A stretch of 63,210 nt of DNA, the filler included, from Aduncisulcus paluster (lineage: Eukaryota), in the NCBI GenBank assembly GCA_024181965.1. It is 4 parts of 4 records of this genome, joined end to end, with 100 filler letters (N's around TTAATTAATTAA, not from the genome) between each part and the next. Parts side by side here need not be neighbours in the genome. Positions count along the whole stretch, not along the records: positions 26,066 to 52,858 come from BQXS01010803.1; 3 more parts are not named here. The stretch is one strand, 5' to 3'. Below are positions 10,807 through 52,958 of this stretch, one piece after another. Under the pieces are notes generated by a model, which was not told the DNA's origin, made no database searches, and was given only the letters and a program-made list of their open reading frames with translations. Every line of letters starts with the position of its first letter. Positions within the stretch are counted from its first letter, which is position 1. Position numbers and translations under genes: made by a program.

Positions 10807-10906
10807 NNNNNNNNNNNNNNNNNNNNNNNNNNNNNNNNNNNNNNNNNNNNTTAATTAATTAANNNNNNNNNNNNNNNNNNNNNNNNNNNNNNNNNNNNNN
10901 NNNNNN
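10807..10906. other. Artificial 100-nt gap spacer N44-TTAATTAATTAA-N44
   Basis: Palindromic six-frame stop linker inside Ns; identical at three sites. Confidence 0.97.
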
Positions 10907-16251: not shown

Positions 16252-17434
16252 AATATCACCTGATATTGCACAAAACAAAAACTTTATGTCTACTAAATCA
16301 TTAAAATATATTATAACAAAAAATAATTAAATTATTACCAAATTTATAAGCAAATATTATATCAATGGATTATTTACTCCATGAAAGCACATATCCTTTC
16401 AAATTCACCTAACTGGGGATATCACATCAAGTATCTTCATAAAACCATTTTATATAGTCAATAAGCATCCTTTTAATCCTTTAAGTGTCTCAAAAACCTG
16501 GATTTAAAAGAATGGTGGGTATTATTCTCGAAGGAAGTGCAGTGGAAAGTAGACTTTCATAGTGAGGGTAGTGACGTTAGGATTGATGATGGCACGAGGT
16601 ATTCTTCTTGGCTCGGGAGAAGTGGGATACAACAACAGTGAAAATGAAGGGAGAGGAGCAGAAGGAAATGGGGTCCAACGCTTTGCCAACAACTCGAGAA
16701 AGTGGGAATTGTTAAGTAGTGTTACATTCATAGCATATATAGTTACTAGTATTGGCCAATAAATAAGGGTTGACACTCGAATTCAGAAGATTAGTTCAGA
16801 TTCAATATGTTTATGTATAAGTTAAGGGGTTATTATTTCTCTTTTTCTTTCACCCTTTCATTTTTTTCTTTCCTTTCTTGTGGTTCAAGCCCATTATCAT
16901 CAAACATTCTGGGCAAAATCCACAAAAAGACTAATGCTGGAGAGGGAGTCTAATATTGGCCCCAGAAGTTGAAATCAAATTAAGTTTTATTTTGTTATAT
17001 TGTTAAATTAATTATTATAATAGAAGAATAATGGAGATAATTAAGAAATTAGCTTATTGCGTGTATTTGAGCTTACATGATAATAATTTTAAAATAATTT
17101 CATTTATATAGTATAATTAAATATAAAACAACTAATTATATTATTCTCACTATGAATTCTTGAACCCTTTGTTATCGTCACGATAATGACGGCTTTTGAC
17201 TGAATTTATCATTCAACTTTCTGGTAATCAATTTTAATTGTGAATTAAATTACATTTTTGGTATTTTTGGTAACTGTTATCCCGTATGTTGATCTTTTTC
17301 ACGATCCACTATTTATCTCGAAGGTTTCCCATTAATTTTCAAATATTACATTAATTTCCGCCTATAAATTATTCATTCATTAATCTTTGCCTACTTTAGT
17401 ATTTATTTTTTAATTCCCCCAATTTATTTAGCCA

Positions 17435-20400
17435 ATGACTTCTCCCACCATTTTTTCCCTTTCAGAGCTTGAGAATCTGAATGATAAAATCAAAGAAACT
17501 TCTTCTCAAACAACTCTAACAGCCCTTTTCAAAGAGACCCTCCCCAGTATTCGAGAGATATTCTCTAGTTTCCATACACCCTCCGATATCGAGTCTAATC
17601 ACGATATTTTTTCGGTTCTCTTTGAAATTATATCTGCGTTTGTAAACCATGATGACAGCACAGGGAAACAGTTGTATCTCAGTTCTCCAAACATCGATGA
17701 ACTCTTGATCTATCTCCTTGAACCCATGATAAAGGCTGAGCGTGTCCTCACAGAAGTATTTGGACATGGAACATCTGCAACTTTAGAAGAAATGTCTGGA
17801 CACCTCGAAGTAGTGGAAATCAACGCAACTGATGGTACAATATACTCAGAACCAGAGCATCCAACCCCACTGCCATCCCACAGCACTGTCCATGCCAAAG
17901 GAACAGGCCATGTTGAACAAGGAGAACATGCTGAACAAGGAGAACATGTTGAACAAGGAGAAAAGGCAGAAAAGACAGAGCTACATACCCATCCCCTCAC
18001 TCGCTGTTTGTTAAGGATTCTGCATGTATCCTTGGAACAATTATCTCACATCAACCCCAGTTATCCCCCTCTGATATACCCGATTATATCCAGAATCCTG
18101 ACCGTGGCACAGTCTCACTCATACAATCGACTCGATGACGCCGTACTCAAGCAGATCCTTTGTATATGCAAACCCATTTCTTTCTCAAATTCTAATTATA
18201 TCAAAAGATCATTATTGGAACTTCTTGCACCTCATTCCTTGTCCCTGATCTTGAAATATCGTTCTGACATTGAGGTGTTTGGCTTTTGGATGGATATTCT
18301 CATGAATCTCACTCTCGATGAGACAAACATCAATCCAGATCCACTCCGATCCTCAAAAGTGTGGCACTTATTCCGTCCTATTCTGGGAATTCTTAGGGAT
18401 GAGTACAAGGGCGATGTGTATGATACGTCTGGACAGATTGATGCTTGTCTGGGGTTCTTTGCCAACCTATGTTCGTGTCCTTGTATTTTAGAGGTTGAGG
18501 ACACTCTTAGAGATGGGAATGGACAGAGTGCATCATCAGGTACTGTCCCCCATGTTCAGACAAATTACCCTGAAGAAGTGTATGAGGGTGTTAAGGATAT
18601 GCTCGATGGTTGGATATACACATTACACCACATGAAACATTCGTGGGGTATTCAATTTGTTAAAGATCTCCTCGATGATTGGTTCTTACCTGTGCAAAAG
18701 AAAAGATACAAACGTTCCATCCGTAGATGGTCTAAATTGGTGTCTACTTTCTCATCTTTTCCAAAATTAGTACCTAGAATATCCCCTAAATACGATAATG
18801 AAATGGAATGGTGCAAAAGAAGGGGAAGGTTGACATCAGATGTTTCCCTCTATTTCTCGAATTGTTATCCAAATGATGTAACAACATGGGAAAAACTGAT
18901 TGAACAAATTCAATCCTGCTCAACTGCAATAGAAAAGTCCAGATTATACAAGAAAAATAAGTTTTCGATGTTATCAGTGTTGAAATTTAGTACTTCTGAT
19001 CGTTCTGAAGAAAGAAGAAAAGGAATGGAAACCGACGATCTTGTTCCAAAAATAGAACAAGGAGAAGGTGGCAAGATTCAACAACATCAACACCATACCT
19101 CCTCTCAGAGTTCTAAAAATAGAATATTCTATATTAGGCAACATTCGAAAGAGATTGAGCTATGTTTCCATTGTCTCGTGGAGTTTTTTGTTCACTTCAA
19201 TGTTCGTCTCAAACGAGTTGTATTTCTTCCTTTCGCAGATATGAAAGATATCATGTCTAATTTTATTGATACATTGAGTGAAATTCATGGAATCCTTCAT
19301 GAAAATGCCGAAAAGGGTCTCATTCCTCAAGCTAAATTTGGAAATCGGATCAGAGTAGAAGAAACAGATATAAATGGTTCATATTGTGCCTTGTGTTCTT
19401 GCTATGCCCTCAAAATGCTGAATGATTATGATCCTGGTTCTTGTACCAACAGTGCCAATACAATGGTCACAGGTTCAAGTCCTTGTCAGATCAATAATGC
19501 TGAAGGAGAACTGCTACAGAATACTATTAATTTCTTTGAGAAAATATCTCCTATTTTGGGACAAATTCTCAAAGAAGGAAGCTCTCGTGACATTCGAATT
19601 CTTCCTTCCTCCTCTTCCTCCTCTTCTTTCGCCTCTTTCTCCTCTAATTCTTTTTCTTCACAACTTCTTAACACTTTACGATTAAGCTCTGTGAAGGATG
19701 TAGCAAGAAACTTAATTAAAACTCTCAAAACAATTTCTATTTTTATCTTGAGAAATAACCAGAATAATTCATGTTCTCTTCGGACATCAAATGCTTGCTT
19801 TGAGCTTCAAATTTCTATTATTAGACTTATTAAGCCATATCTGAGAAACTGGCTGTCTATTTATAGAAGAGATTCAAAGATTACTGGTGCAATCATGTTC
19901 CTTCTTGCAAATCTTACATCTTTGTCAGCATTTACTTCTTCTTCTTTCTCAAAATCTATTTATATGAAAGAAATTGAGGAAAGTATTGTTCATGATGATA
20001 TCATTCCTGAAATAGAACATCTTGAGAAACAATTGCTTATTGAGATTTGGCCCATTGTTCCTTTTATTATGGAGTTTATTTCTTCTGAATACACAATTAT
20101 TCCTTCAAAATCCATCATTACAATGGCTGATCATGAATATGTCTTGCAATTCTTTTCTAATATCTGCACTCTCGACCGTGATAAAGTGTTTATTTTTAAG
20201 TTATATGAATATTTTTCTGTTAATTCAGAAGAAGGAAAGAAGGAAGATAAAAAGGAAGAAAAGGGGGGTGATTTATACATTTTACATTATCTTTTTATGG
20301 GGATGTATTCTGATTTTATCCGCACCACAACTGATGTTTCTGATAGCCATGAGAAAGATAAAATATCAACATCACTTATTATTATTTGTCCGTCCATTCC

Positions 20401-23400
20401 AAATGGAAACTCAACAATAGAAACTCTTATTCAGAATGGACGCTCCTCGGATTCACCAAACAAATATTCCAAATTGAAACTTATCCGAAAGATCATATTC
20501 GGGATATCCCATTGGGTTAAATTAGTCAGTTTAATCGTATCTGGACTTGAATCTCAAACAACAAAAGCTCAATCTGATCATCCAATTCCAATCCCTATTC
20601 TAGTCCAAAATATATGTTTATCTTTCTCAAAACATTTTCAATGGTGCGAATATATCGCCAATGAGTTTTCACTTTCTATATATAGGTATAACGATTGGAT
20701 TTCTGAGAAACAACGAAGACTTCAGAAGCATGATAGTCTTCATTCGGTTTCAGGTCGAAAAAAAATGATTCCAAATGAAAATGAAATCTTATCATCTATT
20801 TTTGGACATTGTGAGAACATTATTCACAACTATTTTTGGGACTATGTGAGAATATTCTCCCCAAAACTACGATATTGGATAAATTTGGGGTCTAAAATTG
20901 TTTCTACTTGTCATGATGGAATGTTGACCAGTGATTTGTTTTCAAAACATAGAGATCAACTTGTAGATGTTTTTGATGAGTTTTGTTCCTCAAAAATGGG
21001 TGAGAGAGAAGAAAATGATAAGCTAATAATAGATCATGCTATGGAACTGTTTCTTTGTTTAGAATGTCTCAGATTGTTTTGTTGTCATACTTCATCCCAC
21101 GTTCTAAAAATAGAAAACGAGAAAGATGAATTGACGCCAAAAGAAGGAATAGAGAAAAAGGAAGGAGAGGGAGAAGGAGAAGGAGAAGAGGAAGAGGAAG
21201 AGGAAGAGGAAGAGGAAGAGAGAGAAGAGAAAAGAGAAGGTGGTCAACAAAGTGAAGAAAGGAGCAAACATGATCGTTCTCAAGTTGTTATTTATCTGCC
21301 TATTGCTGACATGACCATTCTCTTTAACAAATTCTCGAAATATTTTCTTCCAATCTCAAAAGCTTTAAAAACATTATCTTCTTGCCCGAATGTGAAGGGA
21401 AAGAGCAGAGAAGGCGAAAAAGGAGAAGAAGAATATGCTCAAACAAAAAATGATTCCAAATGAAAATGAAATCTTATCATCTATTTTTGGACATTGTGAG
21501 AACATTATTCACAACTATTTTTGGGACTATGTGAGAATATTCTCCCCAAAACTACGATATTGGATAAATTTGGGGTCTAAAATTGTTTCTACTTGTCATG
21601 ATGGAATGTTGACCAGTGATTTGTTTTCAAAACATAGAGATCAACTTGTAGATGTTTTTGATGAGTTTTGTTCCTCAAAAATGGGTGAGAGAGAAGAAAA
21701 TGATAAGCTAATAATAGATCATGCTATGGAACTGTTTCTTTGTTTAGAATGTCTCAGATTGTTTTGTTGTCATACTTCATCCCACGTTCTAAAAATAGAA
21801 AACGAGAAAGATGAATTGACGCCAAAAGAAGGAATAGAGAAAAAGGAAGGAGAGGGAGAAGGAGAAGGAGAAGAGGAAGAGGAAGAGGAAGAGGAAGAGG
21901 AAGAGAGAGAAGAGAAAAGAGAAGGTGGTCAACAAAGTGAAGAAAGGAGCAAACATGATCGTTCTCAAGTTGTTATTTATCTGCCTATTGCTGACATGAC
22001 CATTCTCTTTAACAAATTCTCGAAATATTTTCTTCCAATCTCAAAAGCTTTAAAAACATTATCTTCTTGCCCGAATGTGAAGGGAAAGAGCAGAGAAGGC
22101 GAAAAAGGAGAAGAAGAATATGCTCAAACAAATTTAAGAATGATTCCAAATCATCAAATGCGAAAGGCTATCACTGAATGCATCTGTCAACTGTGTTCTA
22201 ATTATAGCCATGTTGTTTCTCATGAACCAGATCCCTGTTGGAGAGATGATGAACTTATCAGTAAGAATATTTTGCCTATTTTTAGAGATATTCTCAAGAA
22301 TAATAAGAAATCGTTACCTTCTTCCCCTCCATTTTCGTGCTCTTCTTTGACGATCTATCACATTATTAACACTTTAATTAACATTTCAACCTCTACGGAC
22401 TCCTCAAAATGTTCCCTGACAATGAAATTATCTATTTTTAGCTTCCTCAAACCGTATATCAAACCATTAATCACTCAATATCCTCAAAATATAGATCCAA
22501 TTATCCTAATTTTAGCCAATCTGACATCTGAGACCGGGAAGAAAAACAAACTTAAGATTTTGTCTGATATTATCGTCCACGCATGGCCCATTGTGAAGGA
22601 TTCATTAGTCGCTACAATATGGAAGAACTTTAGAAAGAATTCTTTTGATAACAATTCTCTCTCTTCTCAAGCTTCATCAACAAACCTTTGGAATAATTGT
22701 TGCAACAATGGAGAGTCTATTTTTAGATGTTCTTATTCAACACCTTTCTCACTTAATTCTAAAAATAGAATTGTTGATCATGACAACAATAGTTGGTACA
22801 TTGTCAATCCATTCAGGAATAGCCACCGTCATTCTCAATTCAGTATTATCTTACTATTGTCCAACTTTTGTAAGCACCACGAATATGCTCTTGAGGTGTT
22901 TAAGATTGTCAAGAAAATGTATTGGGAATGGTTCAATATAATTCGGTCAATGATGGTCAACTTTCTTCCCTCTCCTGTTCAAACGATTCAAGATCCTCCA
23001 TATTCAACTGAATCATCAGTTACAAGAGCTACAAGTGATATTGTCAAGACAAAACAGCATCATGAGTATGATTCTTATTCTGCTTACATCCAATACAATC
23101 TCGCTAAATATCAGCAATCGCAAGCTAGTGTATTCCTTGTTCGTTTGTTATCCATTCTTTCGGATATTTCTCTGATATCACACAAATTTACTTGCATCAG
23201 AACAGATATTGCAACTGTTTGGGCATATTCTCATGGTGCTAAAAATATCGATTTCCTGAGATACTCAAGAAACATAGTGGCTGTAAACTCTAGATTTCTC
23301 AAACTTGGAGCTTTGACTTCTCTTCTCAAATGTTATAAGAGTTTGACCCGTGTTGATAACCCACTCGATTCCAAAAGAATTTCTATAATATTCTCATCAA

Positions 23401-25965
23401 ATCGGGATTTATTTGGCTCTTTGTTATATTCTTCAATAGATAAACGGCATGTAGCCAAGAATTTGATTGTTTTTGTTTACATGACATTTGTATGTTTGAA
23501 TCTCATTGTAAAATACCCCGTTTTCTATGATTCCCGTGATGCCCATAAGGAAGATTGGAACGAAGAACCAGAAGAACCATTGAAATTTATATTTGCAAGT
23601 GACAATGTAATGCAAACCATCGTGAATGAATTCTTTTTACCAATGACACAGCTTAGACATCCATTTTATTCCGGGGTTGGGCCAGAAAATACATATTTGT
23701 TGGATAAACCTTATTTTTCTTTGTTTACTACCATTGCTGAACGAATGGATTCCAAAAGAAATGCGTTCTTTCTTCTATTTCAACCAACTTTGAGGAAAGT
23801 TTTGAAAGATGTATGCAAAACAAAAGGAAAACTCCAGAAAATCTATATTTCTTCTTCTTATTCTTCCTCTTCTTCTTCTTCCTTAATTGAGGATTATCGG
23901 ACTGGGAAAAGGATACAAAAAGCTTCAAAATTTGGAGTTAAGAATCAATTTGTTGATCTTCTATTTGAGAATACTTCTCTCGGAGCTCTTAGAACTTTGA
24001 GAGCTTTGTCGACTCCACCCATAAATGAGAGGATAAAGTTTGAGATTCTCACTTTAATTGATCCATTTTATGAGAATTGGCTTGAAATATTTCATTCTGA
24101 TCCAAGATATACCCTTGAATGGATTCGTTTGATTCTGAATGTTATCAGTATTTCCAAGACAAGAAGAAGTGAAGCCAGCCATCAAAAAAATGGGAGTAAC
24201 TATCAGGCTTTACAAGGAGTTGATGTGTCAAGAAATAGTTTTCCTTCAAATGATAACGATATTATCCAGAATAGTCACCTTTCTTCTTCTTCATTAATAG
24301 ATAAGCCCAATGATGATAAGAATGGTGATTCAAATGTACATACCCTGAATTTTGTCCTTTGCAAGACTCACAATGATAATAACGATTCCGATATTATCTT
24401 ATTCAGATCAATGGTTCCGGTTTCTATTTTTAGAAATTATTGCCAATTGGCGAAGATATTGCCAACAATTAATGAGTTTTTGGCCGAATATAATGGAAAG
24501 TCTGACAGTGGCAGTATTAAGAGTCAGAAAATGGTGAAAACTACTCCAAAGAATATTTTGGTAGCCAAGGGAAAAGAAGAATCTAAATCAAAACCGATAA
24601 TACATAAACCAAAAGATCCAGAATTAGTCTTAGGGAAGTATTTTGATAGGGTGAAATCAGAATCATGGAAATTCTTTCATGTCTTGCTCCCACTCATCCA
24701 AAAATACAGACAGTTCAACGATTATCGATCATCTTCTAAAAATAGATCAAATATAAATTCCTCTTCTTCTTTCTCAAAATCTATGTTTAGCGATTCCTCT
24801 TCCTCTTCCTCTTGTACCATTTTCAATGAACAATATCATCGATTAATGCTCTTTTTTGCCCAATTGGTTGAGGATTATCCTGAAGAATTTTTAAAGAATG
24901 ATATATTTCATCTAATTGAAGATTTATTGGAGGATTGGTTGGAAGAAATCAATCGTGAGAAAGTATTTGAAGAGGAAAGTTGGAAAGACGTGCAAGAAAA
25001 GATGGTACATATGTTAGACATGTCAGGAACCAATTCTCATGAAATTAGAGAAATGAAACAACAAATTCCAGCTTCTTCTTCTTCCTCTTCCTCCTCTTCT
25101 TCCTCTTCTTCCTCCTCTTCGAATTCTATGAGAACTTGGTGTCACTTTTTGGCTGTTTTATCCACTGTTCCTGATCTTGTCCCTCAAATATCCCCCAAAT
25201 ATGATAATATCATGGAATATTGTAGAACTAGGATCCAAACTCAAGAAGATAATGTTACATTTGATGATTATGTTGAGTACATGGGAAATTGTCATCCGGA
25301 ATCTATCAAAAAGTGGAAGATTATGAATGTTTTGAAAGCTGAATTCCTTGAACCTGATAATATAACATCAATAAGTGAACATTGGGGAGTTAATGAAAAG
25401 AAAAAGGAAGAGGAAGAAGAAGAGAAAGAAAAGAAGAAACAAAAATATGGTATTTATTCAATTATAAGGTTTTTAAATGGCGATAAGATATTTTCTCCGA
25501 TTTCTTCCAGTCTTAAAGTCATATTCTATTCGATTTCTAAGCTTGTGAATGTTTTCAGTAATGTAAAAGATGAAATTTATGATTTATTTAGTTCCCTTGA
25601 CAGCGATTATATTGAAATAACATTAAGAAAACAAGAAAAAGAAGAAGAAAAAGAAGAGGAGGAAGAAGAAGAGGAAGAGGAAGAGGAAGAGGAAGAGGAA
25701 GAAAGAAAAGAGAGAGAGGAAGAAAAGCAAACGAGTGAAAATTCTACTACTTCCAAGAATAATTCGAATAATATTTGGAATATCCAGCAAAAAGTAATTC
25801 TCTCAGCCATTTTGATTGATAAACTTTGTACATCTTTTTCAGTCATTTTGTTGAAATCCTTAGATGTTGTGAATTACATTGATCAAAGAACAAAGAAAGA
25901 ATCACAAAACTTGGGAATAGAAGAAAAGATCATCAAATGCGAAAGGCTATCACTGAATGCATCTG
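17435..25965 (+). CDS. Giant helical (ARM/HEAT-like) repeat protein of a lineage-specific family; interrupted by a 685-bp duplication, 3' end lost at the gap
   Basis: ORFs 17435-21463 and 21435-25965 become one frame if one 685-bp copy is removed. Shares W..L.S..S.vP.LVP.ISPKYD..M.wC and the N-terminal block with 52959-61137. Confidence 0.75.
17909..17962 (+). repeat. 18-nt coding tandem repeat x3 (H[VA]EQGE)
   Basis: catg(t/c)tgaacaaggagaa x3. Confidence 0.9.
20760..22132 (+). repeat. Tandem duplication, unit 685 bp, frame-breaking
   Basis: ATGATTCCAAATGAAAATG at 20765 and 21450; both copies end gctcaaac (21444, 22129); the translations are identical. Confidence 0.93.
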
Positions 25966-26065
25966 NNNNNNNNNNNNNNNNNNNNNNNNNNNNNNNNNNN
26001 NNNNNNNNNTTAATTAATTAANNNNNNNNNNNNNNNNNNNNNNNNNNNNNNNNNNNNNNNNNNNN
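25966..26065. other. Artificial 100-nt gap spacer
   Basis: N44-TTAATTAATTAA-N44. Confidence 0.97.
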
Positions 26066-32581: not shown

Positions 32582-32923
32582 CTATCAGCCAAAACACTAT
32601 TGTATTCTCTAGTTCTTTGTCCAAGTATAAAATCACACAAAAAGAGCTTTATTCAGGAGTTACGTATAACATAAAAATGCGGAGTCCTATTAAATAATTA
32701 GAATCATGGAAATTCCAAGTTCTAGAATCATTTTGTTGTCATAAGAGAATGGCTTATATTTTGTTGGGGGAAAACCTAATTATATTAGTTAAGTTCAGCT
32801 TAGATTATAAAAATGCATCCATATTAAAAATAAAAAATCGAATCAATATTGATTTGATTGGCACGTTTTTTCTCCCTCGTTTCTGAAGGTATGGGACGAA
32901 TGAATCACTGTGCCAAAGGACCA

Positions 32924-35900
32924 ATGCCTTCAAAGTTTATTGAAAGCATCCACTTTTGCAAAAAAAAGTTTCACTTGTTCCGGTGGGATTTTTTCCTTTT
33001 GTGTATTCTATACTCTATTTCTGTGGTGCCTTGCCTGAAAAAATTTGTTAAAGCATACAATGATGTTCAAACCATGGATGAGCTTAACGTACCTATGGAT
33101 GATTTGGAGCCTGAAGAGATTGAAGTTCTTGATGAGATGAGAGGTGAAGTCTACAAATCATTTTATCTTTCTCTTTTGTATCTGTTCATTCCTGTCATTA
33201 TTCATATCGTTATTATCCTTCTTAGATTTTGGTCAAACAGATATTCCGCAAAGACTGGTTGGACTCTTTCTACTTCAAAAAGAGCAAGCCATGTCATAAT
33301 ATATCCTAAAAAGGATTGTGGTAGCCCAGCTATTTGTAAAATTAAGGAGTCCCCTCGCCATAGTAGGTATATTGAGTATCAAGCGGGGAAATATCTTTTG
33401 AATTCTGATGATTCCTTTGTATCTCTTCCATATCCTGTCACAATCTCATATTCTGAAGTTAAGGAGGTTTGTGTAAATGGAGGTCTGTCCAAAGAAGATG
33501 TTGAATCTAAACAAGATCTCTTTGGAATGAACGAAGTTGATATTAGTGTTCCTAAGTTTGGAGAAGTAATTAAAGAGCATTTTATGGCTCCTTTCTTTGT
33601 TTTCCAGATCTTTACCTCTGTTTTATGGTTATTGGATGATGCTAAGTTGTTCTCCTTGTTCTCCTTGTTTATGCAGTTGGTAATGGAATGTGTGAGTGCT
33701 TTCCAGTCTCTGCAGAATCGTAAAGATATTGTCAACATGGCTCCAAGGACATCCCTTGTTTACTGTCTCCGTGATGGTAGATGGGCCAAAATCAAGAGTT
33801 CTCTCCTTGTTCCTGGTGATATCATCAGCTTGGCCCCCGTTGAGGGCCATAAAGAGAAAGAGACCAAGGGAAGAAGAAGAGCGTAAGTTAGCTATGGCTG
33901 AAGCTGAGAAGAAGCGTGCATCTGAAGAGAAGCTCTCTAAACTCATGAGCACTATCACCATGCTCTTCCCTCCTCTTGCTAGTTCTTTGAACTCTAACCC
34001 AACCTCCTCTGTTTCTCATTCTATTCCTGTTCTTTCCTCAATCGTTCCTTGCGATTGTGTCTGTATCAATGGGAGCTGTGTCGTCAATGAGAGTATGTTA
34101 ACTGGTGAAGCTACTCCTCAGGTCAAAGCCAGTATCTCTGTTGTTGACGGAGAGAAGGGAAAGGGAGAGGAAGAAGAAGAGGGAGGAATTGAGATTGATA
34201 AACAGAAAGGAATCTGTCTGTTCGCCGGTACAACTCTCCTCCAGACAACTCACTCAAACAAACCTATTCCCACTCCAAACAAGGGTTGTTTGTGTGTCTG
34301 TGTGAGAAGTGGTGGTGGAACTAGTCAAGGATCTCTATTCAGAATGATTGCTTTCGATACCGAGAAAGCCACTGTGAATACCACAGAGTCTCTTGTATTC
34401 ATGGTATCTCTCTTGATTGTGGCTACTATCGCTGCTTACCATGTCATTGTCCGTGGTCTTGAACATAAGGTTGCCACAGTTCCTCGTCTTGTTCTGGATG
34501 CTGTTCTCATTGTTGTTAGTGTTGTTCCTCCTGAATTGCCTACTGTTCTTTCTCTGTCCATCAACAATGCCCTCAGAAGTCTGAAGAAGGCATTTGTTTT
34601 CTGCACACAACCTTTCCGTATCCCCATGGCTGGTTCTCTCTCGGTCGCTTGCTTTGATAAGACAGGAACGTTGACTGAAGATAAAGTTATTGTCACCAGT
34701 GTGTGGTGTAGCGATGATGATACTTATGCCAAATCGACATCTGACAAGAAGACCCCCAAGAAAACTGATAAGAAGAAGAAGATCAAGATGTCTTCTTCCT
34801 CCCCAGAGTGTTCTTCTCCTTCGGATTCGTCCAAACCTCTCTACTTCTCCCATGAACCAGCTCGTATCAATGCCGAGTGTATGGATGTCATTGGTGGATG
34901 TCACAGTGTTGTCGTTGTCGAGGAAGAGGACTCTGTGTCTGGCAAGATCAAGAAAGTCCCATCGGGAGATAGTCTTGAAGTTGTTTCTCTCAAGTCAACT
35001 GGCTTCTCTCTCACAGCTAGCAGTACAGTTAGCAAGACTATTTGTGTCTGGGGTGTTAAGAACAAGGATATCATGAGACGTATCAACATTATGAAACGGT
35101 TCCCATTCTCCTCTGCACTGAAGAGGATGAGCTGTGTCATTGGTGTCACAAAGGGACGTGGTGGCGTGGAACAGAAGAAGATCGTTGTCAAGGGTGCCCC
35201 TGATGTCATTTCTCCTCTTCTTGCCTCTGTGCCGGCCTCTTATGAAACACAATACAAGAAACTCACGAAACAAGGCTTCCGTGTTCTCACTCTTGCTTGG
35301 AAACCCCTTGACTCCTCAGTGAATGCCTCTGGCATTAGTCGGAAAGATGCTGAGTCCGATCTCATTTTCTGTGGATTCCTTGTCATCACGTCCCCAATCA
35401 AACCTCAGAGTCGAGGAACTATCACAAACCTTCAAAATAGTGGCCATCGGTGTATGATGATCACTGGAGACGCTCTCTTGNNNNNNNNNNNNNNNNNNNN
35501 GTGTCACAAAGGGACGTGGTGGCGTGGAACAGAAGAAGATCGTTGTCAAGGGTGCCCCTGATGTCATTTCTCCTCTTCTTGCCTCTGTGCCGGCCTCTTA
35601 TGAAACACAATACAAGAAACTCACGAAACAAGGCTTCCGTGTTCTCACTCTTGCTTGGAAACCCCTTGACTCCTCAGTGAATGCCTCTGGAATTAGTCGG
35701 AAAGATGCTGAGTCCGATCTCATTTTCTGTGGATTCCTTGTCATCACGTCCCCAATCAAACCTCAGAGTCGAGGAACTATCACAAACCTTCAAAATAGTG
35801 GCCATCGGTGTATGATGATCACTGGAGACGCTCTCTTGACGAGTATCAGCGTTGCCAAGGATGTCAATATGGTTGGAAAAGATCAAAAACTGTGGAAAAT

Positions 35901-37299
35901 TGTCGGTGAATGTAAGAAGGAAGAATCTGAAGAGCTTCCTTCATTCGTTGAGCTTCTTGATGAAGAGACTGGTGAGACAAAGAAGAGCTCTGATCCTCTG
36001 GCCGATGGTCTGGTGTGTATCAGCGAGGGAAAAGCTCTACAACCTTTCCTCCTCCCTGCTCGGTTATACTCCCCATTGACTTTGTCTTTGGTCTCATGTC
36101 TCTCTATCGCTTCCAGAGCTACCCCGGACGATAAGGCCGCCATTGTCCGTGCTTTGAGACGTTGTGGAGAAGGTGTTTTCTGTTGTGGAGATGGCACAAA
36201 CGATGTTGGTGCTCTCAAGAATGCAGATGTCGGTATTGCGTTGTTTGAAAGCGCTGACTATCGTCTCCAAAAGAAGCTTGAAAATGCCAAGAAGAGGTAC
36301 CGTGCTCAACAACTTAATCCACAAGCCATGTACAGGAAAGCTGGTGAACTTGCCAAGCAACGCAAGACTTCCCTTGACTTTGAGTTGAAGACTTTGTATC
36401 AGCAACACAAGAAAGCCATCTACAAGGAATGTGGTATTGCCTGTCCTGATGATCTCCCTATGAACCCAAGGAGTGAGTTCTCTGCTCTTCTGGAAGAAGA
36501 GGAAGAAGGTATGCTTGTGAAGGTCGGAGATGCTTCAATTGCTGCTCCATTCACTGCCAAAAGTGGTCGTATCGAGGATGCTTTGAAGGTTGTCCGTCAA
36601 GGAAGATGCACATTGGTAAGTACTATCCAGATGTACAAGGTTCTTGCACTCACATCCGTATCCTCTGCCTATTCTTTGTCTGTTCTGTTCCTTGATGGTG
36701 TTCGTAGCCATGAATACCAACTTATTGTGAGTTCTCTCGCCTCAACTGCTCTGTTCTATGCCGTCTCTGATGCTAAACCCCTGGATACTCTCGCTTCCAC
36801 TCCTCCTCCCCACTCTGTGCTGAACTTGGGTGTTGTCTTCAGTATAATCGGTCAGGCCATCATGGAGATGGTTGTGCTGATATTCAGTGGTCATTTGTGT
36901 AAAGAATACTCTGGAGTAACTGTCCGCAAGACTGTTCCTTTCAAACACGAATTTGAAGAGTCACTCACAAATACTGTTTTGTTTATTGTCCAATTTTGCC
37001 TCGATGTCGCATGCATTACTGTCAATTATCAAGGAAAGCCACACACTCAGAGCATTTTCCAGAATAAGAAATTACTTTTCAGTGTTGTTGGAAGCGTTGG
37101 AGCTGTATTCGTTTTGGCTAGTCAGATGTTCCCTGAAATCAACACTATGCTCAAGCTTAAGGCCATGTCAAACGATCTTAGATGGAAGGTCCTTGGACTT
37201 TGTATAGCTCACTTTGTTATATGTTGGGTTTGGGATCGTCTTTGTCTTTTCCTGTTTAGAGGAAGATCTGTTCAAAGAAAAAGAGAAAAATCTGAATAA
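32924..37299 (+). CDS. ATP13A1: P5A-type ATPase (Spf1/ATP13A1); +1 frame break near 33868 and a gap-associated duplication
   Basis: PFFVFQIF, NESMLTGE, VVPPELP (P5 signature), CFDKTGTLT, KGAPD, MITGD, GDGTNDVGALK, GDASIAAPFT, RQGRCTLV. Start is ATG 32891 or 32924. Confidence 0.93.
35143..35838 (+). repeat. 338-bp direct repeat flanking a 20-N gap (35481-35500); unmerged contig overlap
   Basis: 35143-35480 equals 35501-35838 apart from C35333/A35691. Confidence 0.92.
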
Positions 37300-37664
37300 T
37301 TCAAATTCTTTCAATAAATATTGCCGATTTTAAACATTAATATTCATTTATCTTTCTTAATCAAGAAATTAAAATTTTCAAAACTATATCTCGAAATATA
37401 AGCCATATGAATAGGTTTTAATGGAATATTTTTATTACTTGGATATTTTTCTTGGTCTATTTGGCATTATCATCCCATGGATATTCAAGGATTTCGGAAT
37501 AGTTCTTCCATTTTGTATCTCGATGGAAATGGATATTATACAAAAATAAAATCGAATTGACAAATTAAAAGCCTCTATACTCTCTAAATTTTGCAACTAT
37601 AAAGTTGAAAAATATAAGAAATTTTCTCTGCATAATTTCGGGCTATTTGACTCAGAAATCAACA

Positions 37665-38465
37665 ATGTCCAGCCCCTCTATCAGATATAGAACCGATGAA
37701 TCCATGAAGGATACTATTGCTTCATCCCCATCTCGTATGAGACTTCATGCTTTATCCACAAAACTCTCTTCTCTTCAAAGTGGTTTAGAGGAGGAAAAAA
37801 TGCAGCGTAGAGATGCAATTGAGACCAAACTTAAAGTTCTTGACGAGAAATTATCTCGTTCTCAATTATCTGAGGCTGCAAAGCTGAAATTGTTGAAAGA
37901 TCAAATCGGAAAACTTCAAGAAGCGCTTGCCACTGAACGTGTGTCGAGAGAAATCCTTGATGAACGTAAGAAGAAGGAGCTTGGTCTTGTTGAATCTTCA
38001 ATTACTCTTGATTTGAATGTCGAAAGGCAACAACGTAAAGATGGTGAGGCTAAGTTGATGAAGAGCATTGAAGAGCGTGTATTTGCTGTCAGACTTGAGC
38101 TTGTTAAGGAGAAAAAGGCTAGAGAGGAAGCTGAAGAAAGACAGACCCGTGAAGTTAGCGAAGAAGTGGGTCGTATTGCTGATGCTCTTGAACAAGAGAG
38201 AAGAACCAGGAAAGAAAAGTATAGCGCTCTCGTCCGCAAACTTCAAGATGAAATTTCCAAGTTACAAGAGGTTGTCGGTCAGGAGAAAAAGATTAGAGAA
38301 GAAAGTGAGACTACTTTGTTTAGAATGTTAGAGGATGTGTCAGCAAACATTCAAGTTGAAATTGACAAGGAAAAAGAAGATAGAGAAGGCACAGAAGAGA
38401 CCATTTTGAAGCTTCTTGAAGAGACTGTTGTTGGTGTCGAACATGGTCTTGAATCAAACCCTTAA
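37665..38465 (+). CDS. SF-assemblin/beta-giardin family striated-fibre protein
   Basis: 266 aa: short Ser/Pro head, then coiled coil LEEEKMQRR...E..ERxxRE ending EDREGTEETILKLLEETV. Confidence 0.8.
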   Translation: MSSPSIRYRTDESMKDTIASSPSRMRLHALSTKLSSLQSGLEEEKMQRRDAIETKLKVLDEKLSRSQLSEAAKLKLLKDQIGKLQEALATERVSREILDERKKKELGLVESSITLDLNVERQQRKDGEAKLMKSIEERVFAVRLELVKEKKAREEAEERQTREVSEEVGRIADALEQERRTRKEKYSALVRKLQDEISKLQEVVGQEKKIREESETTLFRMLEDVSANIQVEIDKEKEDREGTEETILKLLEETVVGVEHGLESNP

Positions 38466-38597
38466 TGTAATTCTGTACACTAATAAAATCTCAGAGATGT
38501 TATTATTATTGATTTTGTTTGTGCTTTTGTATCCTATTTACTCATTGTATCTGAAAAAACAGAAACAAAATTGATTTCCCTTTTTTCTCGGCAGACA

Positions 38598-41500
38598 ATG
38601 TATTTAATTCCAGATAAAGGATCAAAAAAGAAGAAAAGGATCCAGAGCTTTAGAGATCTGCAAAAGTACTTCTCCGCTGCCGACAAGGAAGAAAAATTTC
38701 AAATGTCAATAGATTTATTGCCACCAAGCCATACATCAATAATATGGGGAATGATTGATTCTTGCGATGAAGTAAGATTGTTATGTACAAAAGTAATCAC
38801 TGATTTTGTTGTTATTTTGTGTGAGCTTGAGTCTGAGAAAGATGACTCTCTCAAAAAGCTAAATGAAGCTACCCCTTTTATTTTAACCCAAATTACTCAA
38901 CGTTTTTCGGCTGATAAGGCTCCAAGAAACTTTGGAAGTTCAGACCACTTAGCATTAGCCACCTCTCTTGGTTTCAAGGATTCTACGCCTGTTCCTTCTG
39001 TTCATAATCCATTAGAACGTTCGGATGAGGTAAAAGAAGCTATTATATATCTGCTAACAATTATTGTTGATTGTTTAACACCCTCATGTCTTTCTATTTT
39101 TTCAGACGAGATTAGTAATATCTTGATCTGTGGCACTCTCGATGAATGCCCAAAAATTAAACAAAAATCAATTGAACTTGTTAGAATTTGGTCAGATAAA
39201 CTGCCAGAAGATGCTGGATTGCGGTCCGAGAGGCTTATAGGTGCTCTTCTGATTGGTGGGATCAATAAGGGAAAACTCCGGATTAGATGTCTTGCAATTC
39301 AAGCTGCTGTTTCAGTTGTGAGTGGAAGAGGTAAGAATGAGACTGTTACACGTCACTTGGTAGAAAGGCTCATCGTTCTTAATCGTGATCCGAAAATTGG
39401 AGTCAGACTCTGTTTGGCTGAACAAATTGGGACATTGCTGACAAAACACGTTGATAGACATACTTTAGGACCTGTATTCACTTCATGTTTGTTGTCCTTA
39501 CTCTCTGATCCCTCTGAAGAGGTTGCTCGTGTTGCATTGAATTCACTTGAACAAGGAGGTGAACAATTACTTCAAGACGATAAGAAACGGTACAAACAAC
39601 TCATTAATTTCCAAGATTCTCTGTCGGCACCCATTACTCCCTATAAACAGGCCTACCTCCCTTTCTGCAGCCATCCAATTGTTACAAGACCCTCTTTAGG
39701 ATCCAGATTGCTCGTTAAGAATTGTTTATCGAGAATAATTGGTGTGGTTGTCACGGAGCTCACTGATCCTATCCTTTCCGTTCGTATTCGGGCACTTCGT
39801 CTTCTTGGACACATCATTGCTCATTCCGAACGTGAAATTGCCCGTTATTCCTCATCAATTATTGAAGGTCTTTCTGGAGCCTTTGAAGGTGTAGACTTTC
39901 AAGGAATTAGTCAAAACAGCCGTTTCTCTACTTCTTCTTCTGTTCCAAGTTCCTCTGGATCTGGCAGTGAGACATCTATGGCTGGAGCAAGATACATACG
40001 TGATGGTGGTAAGTTATTTACTTCCGTCGATTCAATGGTTAACTCTGCTACTGGATCGGGATCTTTGCAATCCTCCACCACCCCATCTCGTCCTCACGTT
40101 GAACTTTCTCGCTACGGTCTTGATAAGTACCATCGTGAACGTCAGATGAAGTTAGAAGAAGAGAAAAGAATGCTTCGTCTCTCTTCATCTCCGTGTGCCC
40201 CCTGTGTTGGAGTCTGTGGTGGGGTCATTAACGATGACGATCAGCGAGTCGGGAAAGAAGAGAAAGAGCTTATGTTTGAAATGAGAAAGACCAGTGCTCT
40301 TCTGTTCCTCTCGTTGCCCCTGTCCATTTCTCTAAACCACCTTTCCCACCTCTCTTGTGGAAGGTCATGTATGGCTAGCTCTGTTTCAGTCAGTGAGGAG
40401 AGGAAAGGATGTGCGTTCTTTATGCTTTCTGTGCTATACGATGTGTGGGCCTGTGTGTATGAATGTGGAGGGAAAAGGAGAGATTCTGCCAAGGAGGAAG
40501 ATGGAGGGAAATTGGAAGATGATGAGGATAAAAAGGAGAAAGGAGAGAAGAAGGGAAGAAGAAGAAAAGGAGAAAACTGGAGATTCTACTGTACATGAAG
40601 AAATTGCCTTCTGGGCCAGTTGTGTGTATGACTTATTAGGAATGCAAATCCGACTCCATCTTAAGCGTGAAGTTAAGATCCACGAAGATTTCAAATCTTT
40701 ATCTTCGTTCGTGTCAACCCTATCCACAGTTGACAAGACTCGAACATTCTTTGCTGAATTTGTTCTCTCCGCAGTTGGACTCCTCAAGGTTGTCCAAGAA
40801 ATGGAGGTGAAAAAACAAAGGGAGATTCTTGAAGAAGAGAAGAGGGAGAAAGAGAAAAGGGAGCATAGAGCAATGGTTGATAAACGAGAGGCTGAGAGGG
40901 GAAGTTCTTCTTCCACGGTTAAAGTATCGCCATCTCAACTGGACAATTCTTCCTCTTCCTCCTCTTCTTCCATTCGCCAATTCCCATCTCCCCTCTCACC
41001 AACTCAATCTATTGGCAAACTTCTAACGTTGTTATGTCTTCTTCTTGCTGCCCCTCTTTCGCTTTCCTCTGCTTCTTTCTCTGCTCTGTGTGGACTCGAT
41101 GGTTTGTGTAATATTGGAGTAACTCTTCTGGAAGAGGACTCATCCTCTGTTTTGACTCATATCTTCCCTCTTGTGAGTCATACACTGATCAAACATAGCA
41201 AGGATGAGTGGACACAGATTGAGTCTCCTTCCTTGTCTGCCCTGTGCATTCTTCTCCTCGGATATTCTCCTGTACAATTCCACACTTTTATCGGGAAAGA
41301 CATGTCTGTGCGTCCATATATCTATTCAGAAGCCCTGAAATGTCAGAGACGTCACTCCACCGGACTCTTGCAACCAGCAGTTGCTCGCATCTTTACTTGT
41401 GATTCCCTCTCTACGAAACCATATTTGAATGCTATGAAAGGTATTCTAAAGTCTATAATGAATGGAATGAAGATTGGATGTGATCAAGGTGTCAGAGCTA

Positions 41501-42862
41501 AATTATCATCTTTGCTCCTCAAGGTCATTCAATTCTCATGTGAATGTATTAATCTCGAGGCGTGTGTGCGTGTTAACTCGGCTTCCTTGCCCATATTGCG
41601 TGTGCTTATGAATGGTATTCCTCCCTTGTGTGCTTGGAGGGCTGGTAAGCTCTGTGGACGTGTTCGAAGCAATCTTTTGGATACAATATATGTGTGTTTC
41701 GGTGTTCAACGTCTGTGGGATGAACATGAAAAGGATGATAGGAGTGAATATATACCCGTTGATATTGGATATTGTTCCGATGTTATTGGGGTTTTACGAG
41801 GAGGAATGGATGATGAGGAAGATAAGGTTAGAACCAGTGTTATTCGTCTTAGTGGGCAAATATTCTCCATGTTCAATGGCGTGAACATGAAACATTTGGT
41901 GGAACTTCAGAAACAGCAAGATCAATTGGAGCTTCCTAAAATGGATACTTCTCATGAAGAAAAAGATGAAGAAGAAGTTGATGTAATTGAAGAGAAAGAC
42001 GAGGATGAAGATGTTATTGATTTCCGCAAGTCTATTTCTCCCTCTGCTTTCTCCTCATTGTTGTCTTCACTCTTCTTGGGTGTATCAAATCGTCTTGCTG
42101 ATAGTACCTCTTCAAATGCTTCTCTCGCTGCTAATGTTCTTTGTTCTTTCCCTCTTCTTCTTGCGTGTCCAAGTGATTTGTGTTCTGTTAGTTCCATTTT
42201 ATCACTCCACATTGACGATGAAAGGGAATCCGTTCGTTTGGCATGTCGTGACACTCTTGTATCTTTCATTACATTGCTTGGGCATCCCTTGAATAGCGTT
42301 GATTATGAGAGCATTCTCACACATCTTCCTCACGGATGTGTTCCAACATGCATGCTTCTTGATGATTATTGGATTCCGCAAGTCTATTTCTCCCTCTGCT
42401 TTCTCCTCATTGTTGTCTTCACTCTTCTTGGGTGTATCAAATCGTCTTGCTGATAGTACCTCTTCAAATGCTTCTCTCGCTGCTAATGTTCTTTGTTCTT
42501 TCCCTCTTCTTCTTGCGTGTCCAAGTGATTTGTGTTCTGTTAGTTCCATTTTATCACTCCACATTGACGATGAAAGGGAATCCGTTCGTTTGGCATGTCG
42601 TGACACTCTTGTATCTTTCATTACATTGCTTGGGCATCCCTTGAATAGCGTTGATTATGAGAGCATTCTCACACATCTTCCTCACGGATGTGTTCCAACA
42701 TGCATGCTTCTTGATGATTATTGGATTCCTGTTATGGATGCCAAGAGGAAAGAATTGTTTGCTGAATGTATCAAAGAGTATGAAAAACGAAAGGTCAAGG
42801 CAAGAAACACAAAGGCTATTGAGACAATTGATGCTGTTATTGCTCGTTATTCCTCGAAATAG
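38598..42862 (+). CDS. DNAAF5: Dynein axonemal assembly factor 5 (HEATR2); +1 frame break near 40553 and a 352-bp duplication
   Basis: HEAT repeats. ERSDEVK, RPSLGSRLLVKNCLSRII...ELTD...VRIRALRLL and WRAGKLCGRVR match recalled DNAAF5 motifs, which lie on both sides of the frame break. Confidence 0.8.
42022..42729 (+). repeat. Tandem duplication, unit 352 bp, frame-breaking
   Basis: ttccgcaagtctatttc at 42022 and 42374; both copies end ggattcc. Confidence 0.93.
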
Positions 42863-43342: not shown

Positions 43343-45346
43343 TTACAATTTCTTCGAATCGCTCTCTTCTCCCACACTTGGTTCATCGATCAATGGATCC
43401 TCTTCCTGATTCGCACAGGCACATCCAGTCATGCCCTGAAGAGCACCAAATACAACGCCAACAAATTCTGACATGTGCATGAACGATGATTCAAGGTAGT
43501 TTAGTTCCTCAGGAAGGGTAGATATTTGTTCTTTATGGACCTCAGAGGGATTGAGAGTACCTCCAGATGGAACAAAGGACTCCACAACTTCCTCATCGGC
43601 ATCAAATAGTTGCATTCCTTCGTTGACAACACATTGAAGGTAACAATTCGTGTTGAGGGTTACACTCGAACTTGAGGAGCTTTCGACTTCTTCGTCGTAA
43701 TAGGAATAAGATATCTCATCATCAAGAGAGAAGGCACTCTGTTTGGATTCTAATGATTCTTTTTTATCTCCTTCTTCTTTCTCTTCCTCACTGATATCAT
43801 CTTTCGCATGAAAGGCATCCCAATGTTCATCAATAGTCTGATCTGAGGGTTGGACATCCTGAGATTCACTTTTTCCAGCGTCTCTAGCCTCTTCTTTGCT
43901 ATATTTGGATATTGAATCAGAAGTCGTCGCGGTGGGGTCTGTTTTTGAACGGCTTGCTTCCTCAACAGTGCTCATATCGCCAGTAAACTTCACTTTGCTT
44001 CATGGATNNNNNNNNNNNNNNNNNNNNTCTCCTTCTTCTTTCTCTTCCTCACTGATATCATCTTTCGCATGAAAGGCATCCCAATGTTCATCAATAGTCT
44101 GATCTGAGGGTTGGACATCCTGAGATTCACTTTTTCCAGCGTCTCTAGCCTCTTCTTTGCTATATTTGGATATTGAATCAGAAGTCGTCGCGGTGGGGTC
44201 TGTTTTTGAACGGCTTGATTCCTCAACAGTGCTCATATCGCCAGTAAACTTCACTTTGCTTCCTTCTAAAATACTCTGGACAGATAATGGGTATGCTTTG
44301 GATCCTCTCTTCCTTTTTCTATGCATTCTGTGTTTCGTCAAAAGATCGGATGATGGATGAGTTGAAATGCCCTCAGAAGTCCGTTTGGCTGCTTCAAACT
44401 TGATTGTATCATGGGGAGGAACAATAAAACAATTCTGATTCTTTTTCTTGTATGGAAAGAATTCAATGAGATAAGTATGGATCTTAAGACCGGCATCATG
44501 AAGGATATTTTGGGCCGAATTCATGGAGTGGAAACATATTGTACCTGTGCTCCAGGCCATATGAGCGTTGTGCCAACTCCAAGATTTTATCATTCCATAT
44601 TTATGCTCAAGCAACATGCGGATTCTAAATGAGGTAACAACGCCCGAGGAGGATTGTAGATCGGTCCTATTCACATGAATTGCACGATCATCATCAGTTG
44701 GAATCTGTGAAGTCGGAGGAATGCGAGAAATAACCAGGAAGAGGGAGCGAATTGTTTGAGTCTCTGAGGGATCTTTAGAGGGTAATTTTGGAAGGTTGGT
44801 ATAGACAAAAAAACAATCAAGCATGGAAAATAACAAGGAATACCAATTGATAGTGAATTGTATTCGAATTCTAACCTTTGGTTTTCGCCCAGATTTGTGT
44901 TCAGTTGATACAATTGTAAAATTATCTTTTCCAATGGAATCAGAAAGAATTTGTTTGACATAATCGATTATACTACCGATATATACAGCACTTCTCTCAA
45001 ATAAATTACACTCTTTTGATTCGGGATATGGAGCAACACTTAAAATCATATTATATTTGGGTGTTTTAAAATGTTGCAAGAATTGATCCCTTGAATAAAA
45101 CAACATGAACTGAGTATCATCACATGGCAATTTTTCAACGTATTCTTTCATTGATAGATCAGATGTTCCAATAATATGATTCTCAAGTTTTTCAATGTTC
45201 ACAATGGATGGATTACTAGAAATAATAACCGTTTTATCCGACAATAATGCATCTGTTTTGCGAATGGAAGTGATCCATCCTTGTGGGGAATTGAAAATGG
45301 TAATTATATATTCAAAGGCTAAAACTTGTTCTTTACGTAAATTCAT
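43343..45346 (-). CDS. Hypothetical protein with possible degenerate RRM and acidic C-terminus; split by a 20-N gap
   Basis: ORFs 44000-45346 and 43343-43993 overlap through the duplicated flank. LFLVISRIP...IRMLLEHKYGMI...TGTICFHSMNSAQNIL is RRM-like; HRKRKR is a possible NLS. Confidence 0.6.
43767..44262 (+). repeat. 235-bp direct repeat flanking a 20-N gap (44008-44027)
   Basis: 43767-44001 equals 44028-44262 apart from C43957/A44218. Confidence 0.92.
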
Positions 45347-52153: not shown

Positions 52154-52858
52154 TTATTGACCATGAAAGTTCCTCTTATCGGGTAGACCATACATACCGT
52201 GATGTTCAGGATATTCTGCAGCAACAAAATGCTCTCTAATGACGGTCTCTTTAACAATCACTTTAGTTCCTGGTGGAAGATGGGGAGGGATATGGAAATC
52301 TTGACCTTGATGAGGACTGTGACCTGGGTGAGCACCACCATGATCTTGATAATGTCTATGGCCTTGACGAGAACCACTACCACGACCTGAATGATGATAA
52401 GGACTGTGACCTGAGTGAGGATGATCTCTCTTTTTCTTGTGTTCTTTCTTTTTCTCCCATTCCCTCATCTCCCATTCCTTTCTCTCCCTCTCCTTTCTCT
52501 CCCTCTCTCTTCTTTCTGCATCCTTTTTTTCTCTTCTACGCTCCGCTTCTTTTTCTCTCTTACGTTCAGCCGCTTCTCTATCCCTTTCTTCCTGTTCTTT
52601 CTTCTCTTTTTCCTCTTTCTTTTTCTTGTCCATTTTTCGTTTTAATTCCTTCATTTCTTTCATTTCTTTCATTTCTTTTTCAAAATCCTTTTCTTTTGCT
52701 TTTCTTTCTTTCTCTTGTTTAATAGCCTCGATTTTTTCATCTTCTTCTTTCCTTTTCCTGTCTTTTTCTTTCTTTTTTCTACATTTTTCGATTTTTTCAA
52801 AAATTTCTTCTTCTTGCACATCACATGAATTTTCATTTTCATCTTCGCGAGACTCATG
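52154..52858 (-). CDS. Lys/Glu/Arg-rich charged helix plus His/Gly/Pro tail; 3' gene fragment emerging from the gap
   Basis: Open from the gap edge to TAA 52154; same strand as the repeat gene entering the gap from the other side. Confidence 0.65.
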   Translation of the reverse strand, partial: HESREDENENSCDVQEEEIFEKIEKCRKKKEKDRKRKEEDEKIEAIKQEKERKAKEKDFEKEMKEMKEMKELKRKMDKKKKEEKEKKEQEERDREAAERKREKEAERRREKKDAERRERERKERERKEWEMREWEKKKEHKKKRDHPHSGHSPYHHSGRGSGSRQGHRHYQDHGGAHPGHSPHQGQDFHIPPHLPPGTKVIVKETVIREHFVAAEYPEHHGMYGLPDKRNFHGQ

Positions 52859-52958
52859 NNNNNNNNNNNNNNNNNNNNNNNNNNNNNNNNNNNNNNNNNN
52901 NNTTAATTAATTAANNNNNNNNNNNNNNNNNNNNNNNNNNNNNNNNNNNNNNNNNNNN
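52859..52958. other. Artificial 100-nt gap spacer
   Basis: N44-TTAATTAATTAA-N44. Confidence 0.97.

Follow-up and report, generated by a model that had tools for sequence, protein, structure and literature searches.

Two unrelated genes on a single 26.8-kb scaffold of the draft Aduncisulcus paluster genome each appear to be interrupted by a +1 frame break at the same 15-mer. Both breaks are best explained as two-base (AA) consensus losses of a short-read draft, with no recoding signal involved, and we put the probability of this reading at about 85%. The sequence analysed here (the window, 63,210 bases) consists of four assembly records joined by N44-TTAATTAATTAA-N44 linkers (10807-10906, 25966-26065 and 52859-52958). 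These linkers put a stop in all six frames, and adjacency across them does not represent physical linkage. The two sites lie 6.7 kb apart on the same record (26066-52858; 26,793 nt). The coordinates of individual features are collected in Table 1.

Table 1 Features of the window discussed in the text, in window positions.
Feature	Position	Strand	Remarks
Site 1 15-mer	33866-33880	+	Break in the P5A-type ATPase, from frame 2 to frame 0
Site 2 15-mer	40551-40565	+	Passage from frame 0 to frame 1 behind the DNAAF5-like ORF
ATPase gene	33071-37299	+	One 1290-codon ORF with AA behind 33869 and with the gap and one duplicate (35143-35500) dropped
DNAAF5-like gene	38598-42862	+	One 1304-codon ORF if AA is placed behind 40554 and the 352-nt duplicate is reduced to a single copy
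Proposed 100-nt intron, rejected	33883-33982	+	Coding; P0082 translates 33893-33982 and X2 contig 6 is unspliced
46-nt pseudo-intron of P0081	33809-33854	+	Bridges the frame error; takes out a conserved stretch beginning VPGDIISL
20-N gap with direct duplicate	35143-35838	+	Gap 35481-35500; copies 35143-35480 and 35501-35838
Second 20-N gap with direct duplicates	43767-44262		Gap 44008-44027; copies from 43767 and 44028, at least 235 nt
352-nt tandem duplicate, second copy	42378-42729	+	352 = 3 x 117 + 1, also breaks the frame

A 15-mer shared by two frame breaks

Exact copies of AAGGGAAGAAGAAGA were found at sites 1 and 2 and nowhere else in the window, with a third place (52740-52754, - strand) differing from it by one mismatch. 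At site 1, a frame-2 ORF (32858-33886, stop to stop) ends at TAA 33884-33886 and is overlapped by a frame-0 ORF (33696-35561). At site 2, a frame-0 ORF (38487-40598) ends at TGA 40596-40598 and is overlapped by a frame-1 ORF (40336-42453). In both cases the upstream ORF reads the AAG that opens the 15-mer as one codon (33866 and 40551), and both breaks require a +1 move in identical codon phase. The two exact copies and the geometry of the ORFs thus confirm the central observation of the initial annotation, that an identical 15-mer stands in the same phase at two +1 frame breaks. Within the window, 2 of the 2 exact copies sit at such breaks. The shorter GGGAAGAAG occurs at three more places (49576, 53288 and 22326), each within an ORF that stays open.

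Dinucleotide shuffles of the window yield an expectation of 0.03 matches for the 15-mer, a figure that understates the chance of a shared 15-mer. A total of 78 purine-only or pyrimidine-only tracts of at least 15 nt are present in the window, and 26 of these have a 15-mer in common with another tract, which makes sharing of purine 15-mers a common event here. Expressed per pair, 42 of 3003 tract pairs have a common 15-mer, with assembly duplicates accounting for some of them. For one 15-mer to fall at a pair of +1 breaks with matching phase, a chance of approximately 1% per pair has to be multiplied by 1/3 for the phase. Such a coincidence is unlikely by chance and therefore calls for a shared cause linked to the sequence context.

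The Pfam E1-E2_ATPase profile (1.5e-15) is divided between the two ORFs at site 1, with the frame-2 ORF matching profile positions 2-33 and the frame-0 ORF positions 35-180. Further matches to Cation_ATPase, Hydrolase and Cation_ATPase_C were obtained, and the best foreign matches in a protein search carry the names ATP13A1, Spf1 or ER transmembrane helix translocase. Judged by these similarities, the gene is a P5A-type P-type ATPase (ATP13A1/Spf1) that is truly broken at site 1. At site 2, both TPR_DNAAF5 (1.9e-20) and HEAT_DAAF5 (7.7e-11) match upstream of the break, and by its Pfam domains the upstream ORF qualifies as DNAAF5 (HEATR2). The downstream 705-aa ORF gave no family match, even at E ≤ 10. 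The earlier statement that both genes otherwise keep their motifs consequently holds for the ATPase, where the profile runs across the break, and fails for the DNAAF5-like gene, where all family matches lie upstream of it. Atlas look-alikes of the downstream ORF, selected by language-model features, are HEAT/ARM/TPR-like solenoids, which provides a lead only.

A reading frame restored by two bases and a probable second case

Contigs from two public sequencing runs were placed on positions 32800-42500 (9.7 kb) of the window. The first run (X1) is probably DNA and possibly the source of the assembly, while the second (X2) derives from the same sample and is guessed to be RNA. Over this region, X1 provided 5 records, eight low-complexity pieces of 18-26 nt. 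X2 cover is absent in the bin 32800-33123, and contigs of this run drop rare variants. The depth of the X2 contigs ranges from 127 to approximately 5000, compared with 1251-1380 for the X1 records; this hints at X2 being RNA, contig depth being a poor measure.

Three X2 contigs (depth 2852.4/5484.1) carry AA inserted behind 33869, between G33869 and G33870, and this is the sole X2 indel row in 32800-42500. Two more X2 contigs finish behind 33869 with a 10-letter loose end, AAGAAGAAGA, which fits the AA form and not the G of the window. All five X2 records listed at 33869 therefore fit AAGG+AA+GAAG..., and none of the five fits the window's GGG. The AA present in these contigs restores the ORF: once it is inserted, not a single stop interrupts the frame between Met 33071 and 35480. 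As the AA form makes the ATPase one uninterrupted ORF, recourse to a frameshift or an intron is unnecessary. The corrected junction reads ~KETKEEEEERK, one Glu more than the shifted peptide given previously (KETK-EEEERK). We infer that the DNA itself carries the AA form.

A longer-length protein search with the ATPase yielded the public proteins P0081 and P0082. The latter comes from EukProt (Aduncisulcus paluster strain NY0171) and is named in the style of a transcript ORF; before the genome paper, the data for this species were transcriptome only (PMC9933649). P0082 agrees with the C-terminal 1015 residues of the corrected ATPase ORF at every position (1015/1015). It starts at ATG 33893, 24 nt past site 1, so that the site itself falls outside this protein. 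A near-length search with the read-through ATPase piece gave 74 matches (best identity 44%), none of them from Aduncisulcus paluster.

For site 2, no listed X2 contig bridges the break. X2 contig 12 (237 nt) approaches it from downstream, with 235 letters fitting 40555-40789 and the last 2 letters mismatching the GG at 40553-40554. Had contig 12 carried the window's GGG, or GG, its fit would have reached 40554 at the least, while AA at this position would produce the pattern observed. On the basis of these two unfitted end letters, and by analogy, site 2 probably suffered the same AA loss as site 1. In the frame-1 ORF, 306 nt free of stops precede the first Met, and contig 12 covers what would otherwise be the intergenic stretch (40555-40789). 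Together with the 1304-codon corrected ORF, these observations suggest that a single gene is interrupted at site 2. Should the 592-residue part 40600-42377 represent the C-terminal half of DNAAF5, it has diverged strongly.

A 300-residue query (40567-41466), aimed at finding a junction-spanning transcript fragment at site 2, was searched against 1.84 billion representatives at E ≤ 0.001 and returned a single match, the gene's own public model P0203. A protein search with the DNAAF5 read-through returned 2 matches, both of them public models (P0202 and P0203).

A probable consensus error and its alternatives

In the consensus-error reading, a true lysine/glutamate-rich coding run AAGG(AAG)4... 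would have been written as AAGGG(AAG)3..., and the AA lost in the process would shift the downstream reading frame by +1. The same true low-complexity 17-mer would be present at both sites, and the same mis-call would leave the same 15-mer in the same phase, the two sites being alike because the real 17-mer is identical at both. The cell would then read the ATPase straight through, as ~KETKEEEEERK, with no frameshift and no intron. One possibility for the assembler step is that allelic (AAG)n length variation was voted column by column in the consensus. An error of this kind was among the options originally considered, and the AA seen in X2 at site 1 supports it in kind; the detail has changed, with G(AAG)3 standing for (AAG)4 and not simply GGG for GG. 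GG(AAG)4 is found intact on the - strand at 23882 and 25085, within a + strand ORF that stays open through both places. Since the run is intact elsewhere without a frame break, the error cannot be deterministic for this context. A 2-nt loss is not the commonest type of short-read consensus error, which counts against this reading.

Small-indel consensus errors at low-complexity or microsatellite runs of drafts are a target of read-based polishers such as POLCA (PMC7347232). The present case resembles such draft errors in that a 2-nt difference between assembly and read contigs, located in an (AAG)n run, breaks an otherwise intact ORF, and in that other scaffold artefacts occur alongside. It is unlike them in that the same error has occurred twice, in the same 17-nt context, on one 26.8-kb scaffold.

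Programmed +1 ribosomal frameshifting on GGA AGA AGA AGA, which the initial annotation had put forward, would account for the same 15-mer standing in the same phase at two +1 breaks. However, the X2 form of site 1 needs no shift (X2 being RNA by guess, and site 2 being unbridged), and the out-of-frame arrangement is accordingly not the one that these presumed messages retain at site 1. In Euplotes, the frameshift motif is AAA followed by a stop codon. The 0-frame stops here read GCG TAA and ACA TGA, not AAA-stop, and follow the beginning of the motif by 6 and 15 codons; no slow-to-decode 0-frame codon was found at the shift site. Indeed, 111 of the 345 Arg codons (11 ORF segments, 6971 codons) are AGA, the most used of them and hence not a hungry codon. 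The two sites do share with the Euplotes system, in which +1 frameshifting takes place at internal stop codons (PMC10235951, PMC4759687), a +1 move that continues a conserved ORF with a 0-frame stop shortly downstream. They differ from it in the codons preceding the stops (GCG and ACA), in the host, a fornicate metamonad, and in the unbroken frame of the X2 contigs. Similarly, the run of three AGA codons read in the 0 frame is reminiscent of hungry-codon shifting in E. coli, where tandem AGA_AGA or AGG_AGG cause +1 shifts with sparse tRNAs (PMC5009743). That case, as described there, needs a sparse tRNA for a rare codon, whereas AGA is the commonest Arg codon here. With an intact frame in X2, an abundant AGA codon and no AAA-stop, programmed frameshifting is extremely unlikely. 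The third proposal, a 100-nt GT-AG intron (33883-33982) that would restore the ATPase frame, has in its favour a length of 3n+1 and GT...AG ends, with GTAAGT starting at 33883 and TAG finishing at 33982. However, P0082 translates the stretch from ATG 33893, with its first 30 codons falling inside it, and a protein that begins inside the proposed intron and reads through it refutes the intron. In addition, X2 contig 6 (648 nt) spans 33894-34541 with 0 gaps, across the proposed 3' splice site at 33982/33983; no splice joints are listed in the X2 contigs over 32800-42500; and, by simple arithmetic, taking out 100 nt from the AA form would itself break the frame. The candidate is thus ruled out as a spliceosomal intron by both P0082 and the unspliced contig, leaving it with practically no probability.

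A real GGG allele would require one haplotype to carry a frameshifted null copy of both genes, with X2 showing the intact AA allele. The mismatch between the gap duplicates (35333, C vs A) hints at allelic variation in the culture, and a minor GGG form in X2 is possible given that its contigs drop rare variants. Nevertheless, two independent mutations are unlikely to have removed the same 2 nt from an identical 17-nt context in two unrelated genes, and GGG fits 0 of the 5 X2 records at 33869; we consider this explanation unlikely. Alternatively, the DNA could have GGG, with AA being added in RNA by insertional editing or polymerase stuttering at AAGG^GAAG, repairing both messages. The DNA-built assembly and X2 (guessed RNA) do differ at site 1 by exactly AA, but the assembly departs from X2 and P0082 by gross artefacts too (the gap duplicate and the 352-nt duplicate), so that error by itself would lead one to expect a DNA-versus-RNA difference. 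An AAG repeat that slips would also be expected to gain 3 nt, not 2, and we know of no nuclear AA-insertion editing in metamonads. An RNA-level insertion is in our estimation very unlikely indeed. More broadly, it is very unlikely that the genome truly reads AAGGGAAGAAGAAGA at both sites and that the cell rescues two unrelated genes, be it by AA insertion into the transcript at AAGG^GAAG or, in messages retaining GGG, by a +1 ribosomal shift. If it did, this would constitute a sequence-programmed recoding signal in a free-living fornicate. With the AA loss as the preferred explanation, no recoding signal is needed and the breaks carry no biological weight; their value is as a caution concerning this draft and the gene models built on it. 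A frame break in a purine-rich run of the Aduncisulcus paluster draft should not be taken as recoding.

Assembly artefacts and public gene models

The Aduncisulcus paluster genome is an Illumina-only assembly made with MaSuRCA 3.3.3, with an N50 of 4.6 kb, a BUSCO score of 40.4% and Braker2 gene models (PMC9933649). Both 20-N gaps in record 26066-52858 (2/2) are flanked by direct duplicates. The duplicates at the first gap (~338 nt) differ by 1 mismatch, 35333 C vs A, among ~336-338 positions. To judge from this arrangement, the duplicates are unmerged contig ends, a scaffolding artefact. In the case of the ATPase gap, P0082 holds the flanking stretch once only, which marks the duplicate as an artefact. 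A 352-nt tandem duplication without N spans 42014-42729 (42014 with 42366). X2 contig 13 skips the duplicate, its loose end behind 42377 corresponding to the letters at 42730-42759, while the public model P0203 translates it twice. A further tandem duplication, of 685 nt (20760-21744, 3n+1, no N), lies on the neighbouring record, breaks a long ORF in its turn and falls at the overlap of ORFs 17432-21463 and 21396-26021.

Public models on record 26066-52858 absorb such assembly errors in three ways: by pseudo-intron, by gene fusion and by gene split. P0081 (33071-38465) passes from ...KIKSSLL straight to RKRPREEEE... via its 46-nt pseudo-intron, bridges the N gap by a pseudo-intron as well, and repeats part of the ATPase encoded by the gap duplicate. 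The same model fuses the ATPase to the next gene, an SF-assemblin/beta-giardin-like coiled-coil protein (37662-38462; PF06705, 4.5e-08). The DNAAF5-like gene is publicly annotated as two genes, P0202 and P0203. A figure of 11,743 introns has been given for the draft (PMC9933649). Intron counts, gene counts and absence calls from this draft may be distorted.

Elsewhere in the window, six copies of a ~1 kb unit (169-nt core, 63-100% identity, spacing 1008-1173 nt) are found at 52903-60656 on the - strand. They sit in very long - strand ORFs, 52903-56427 and 56118-60656, which overlap in different frames. Reading of the same-strand ORF overlaps 56118-56427 and 60595-60656 (- strand) revealed no purine motif. 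The ~1 kb units may belong to a large repeat protein, and the ORF overlaps may represent further frame errors or introns.
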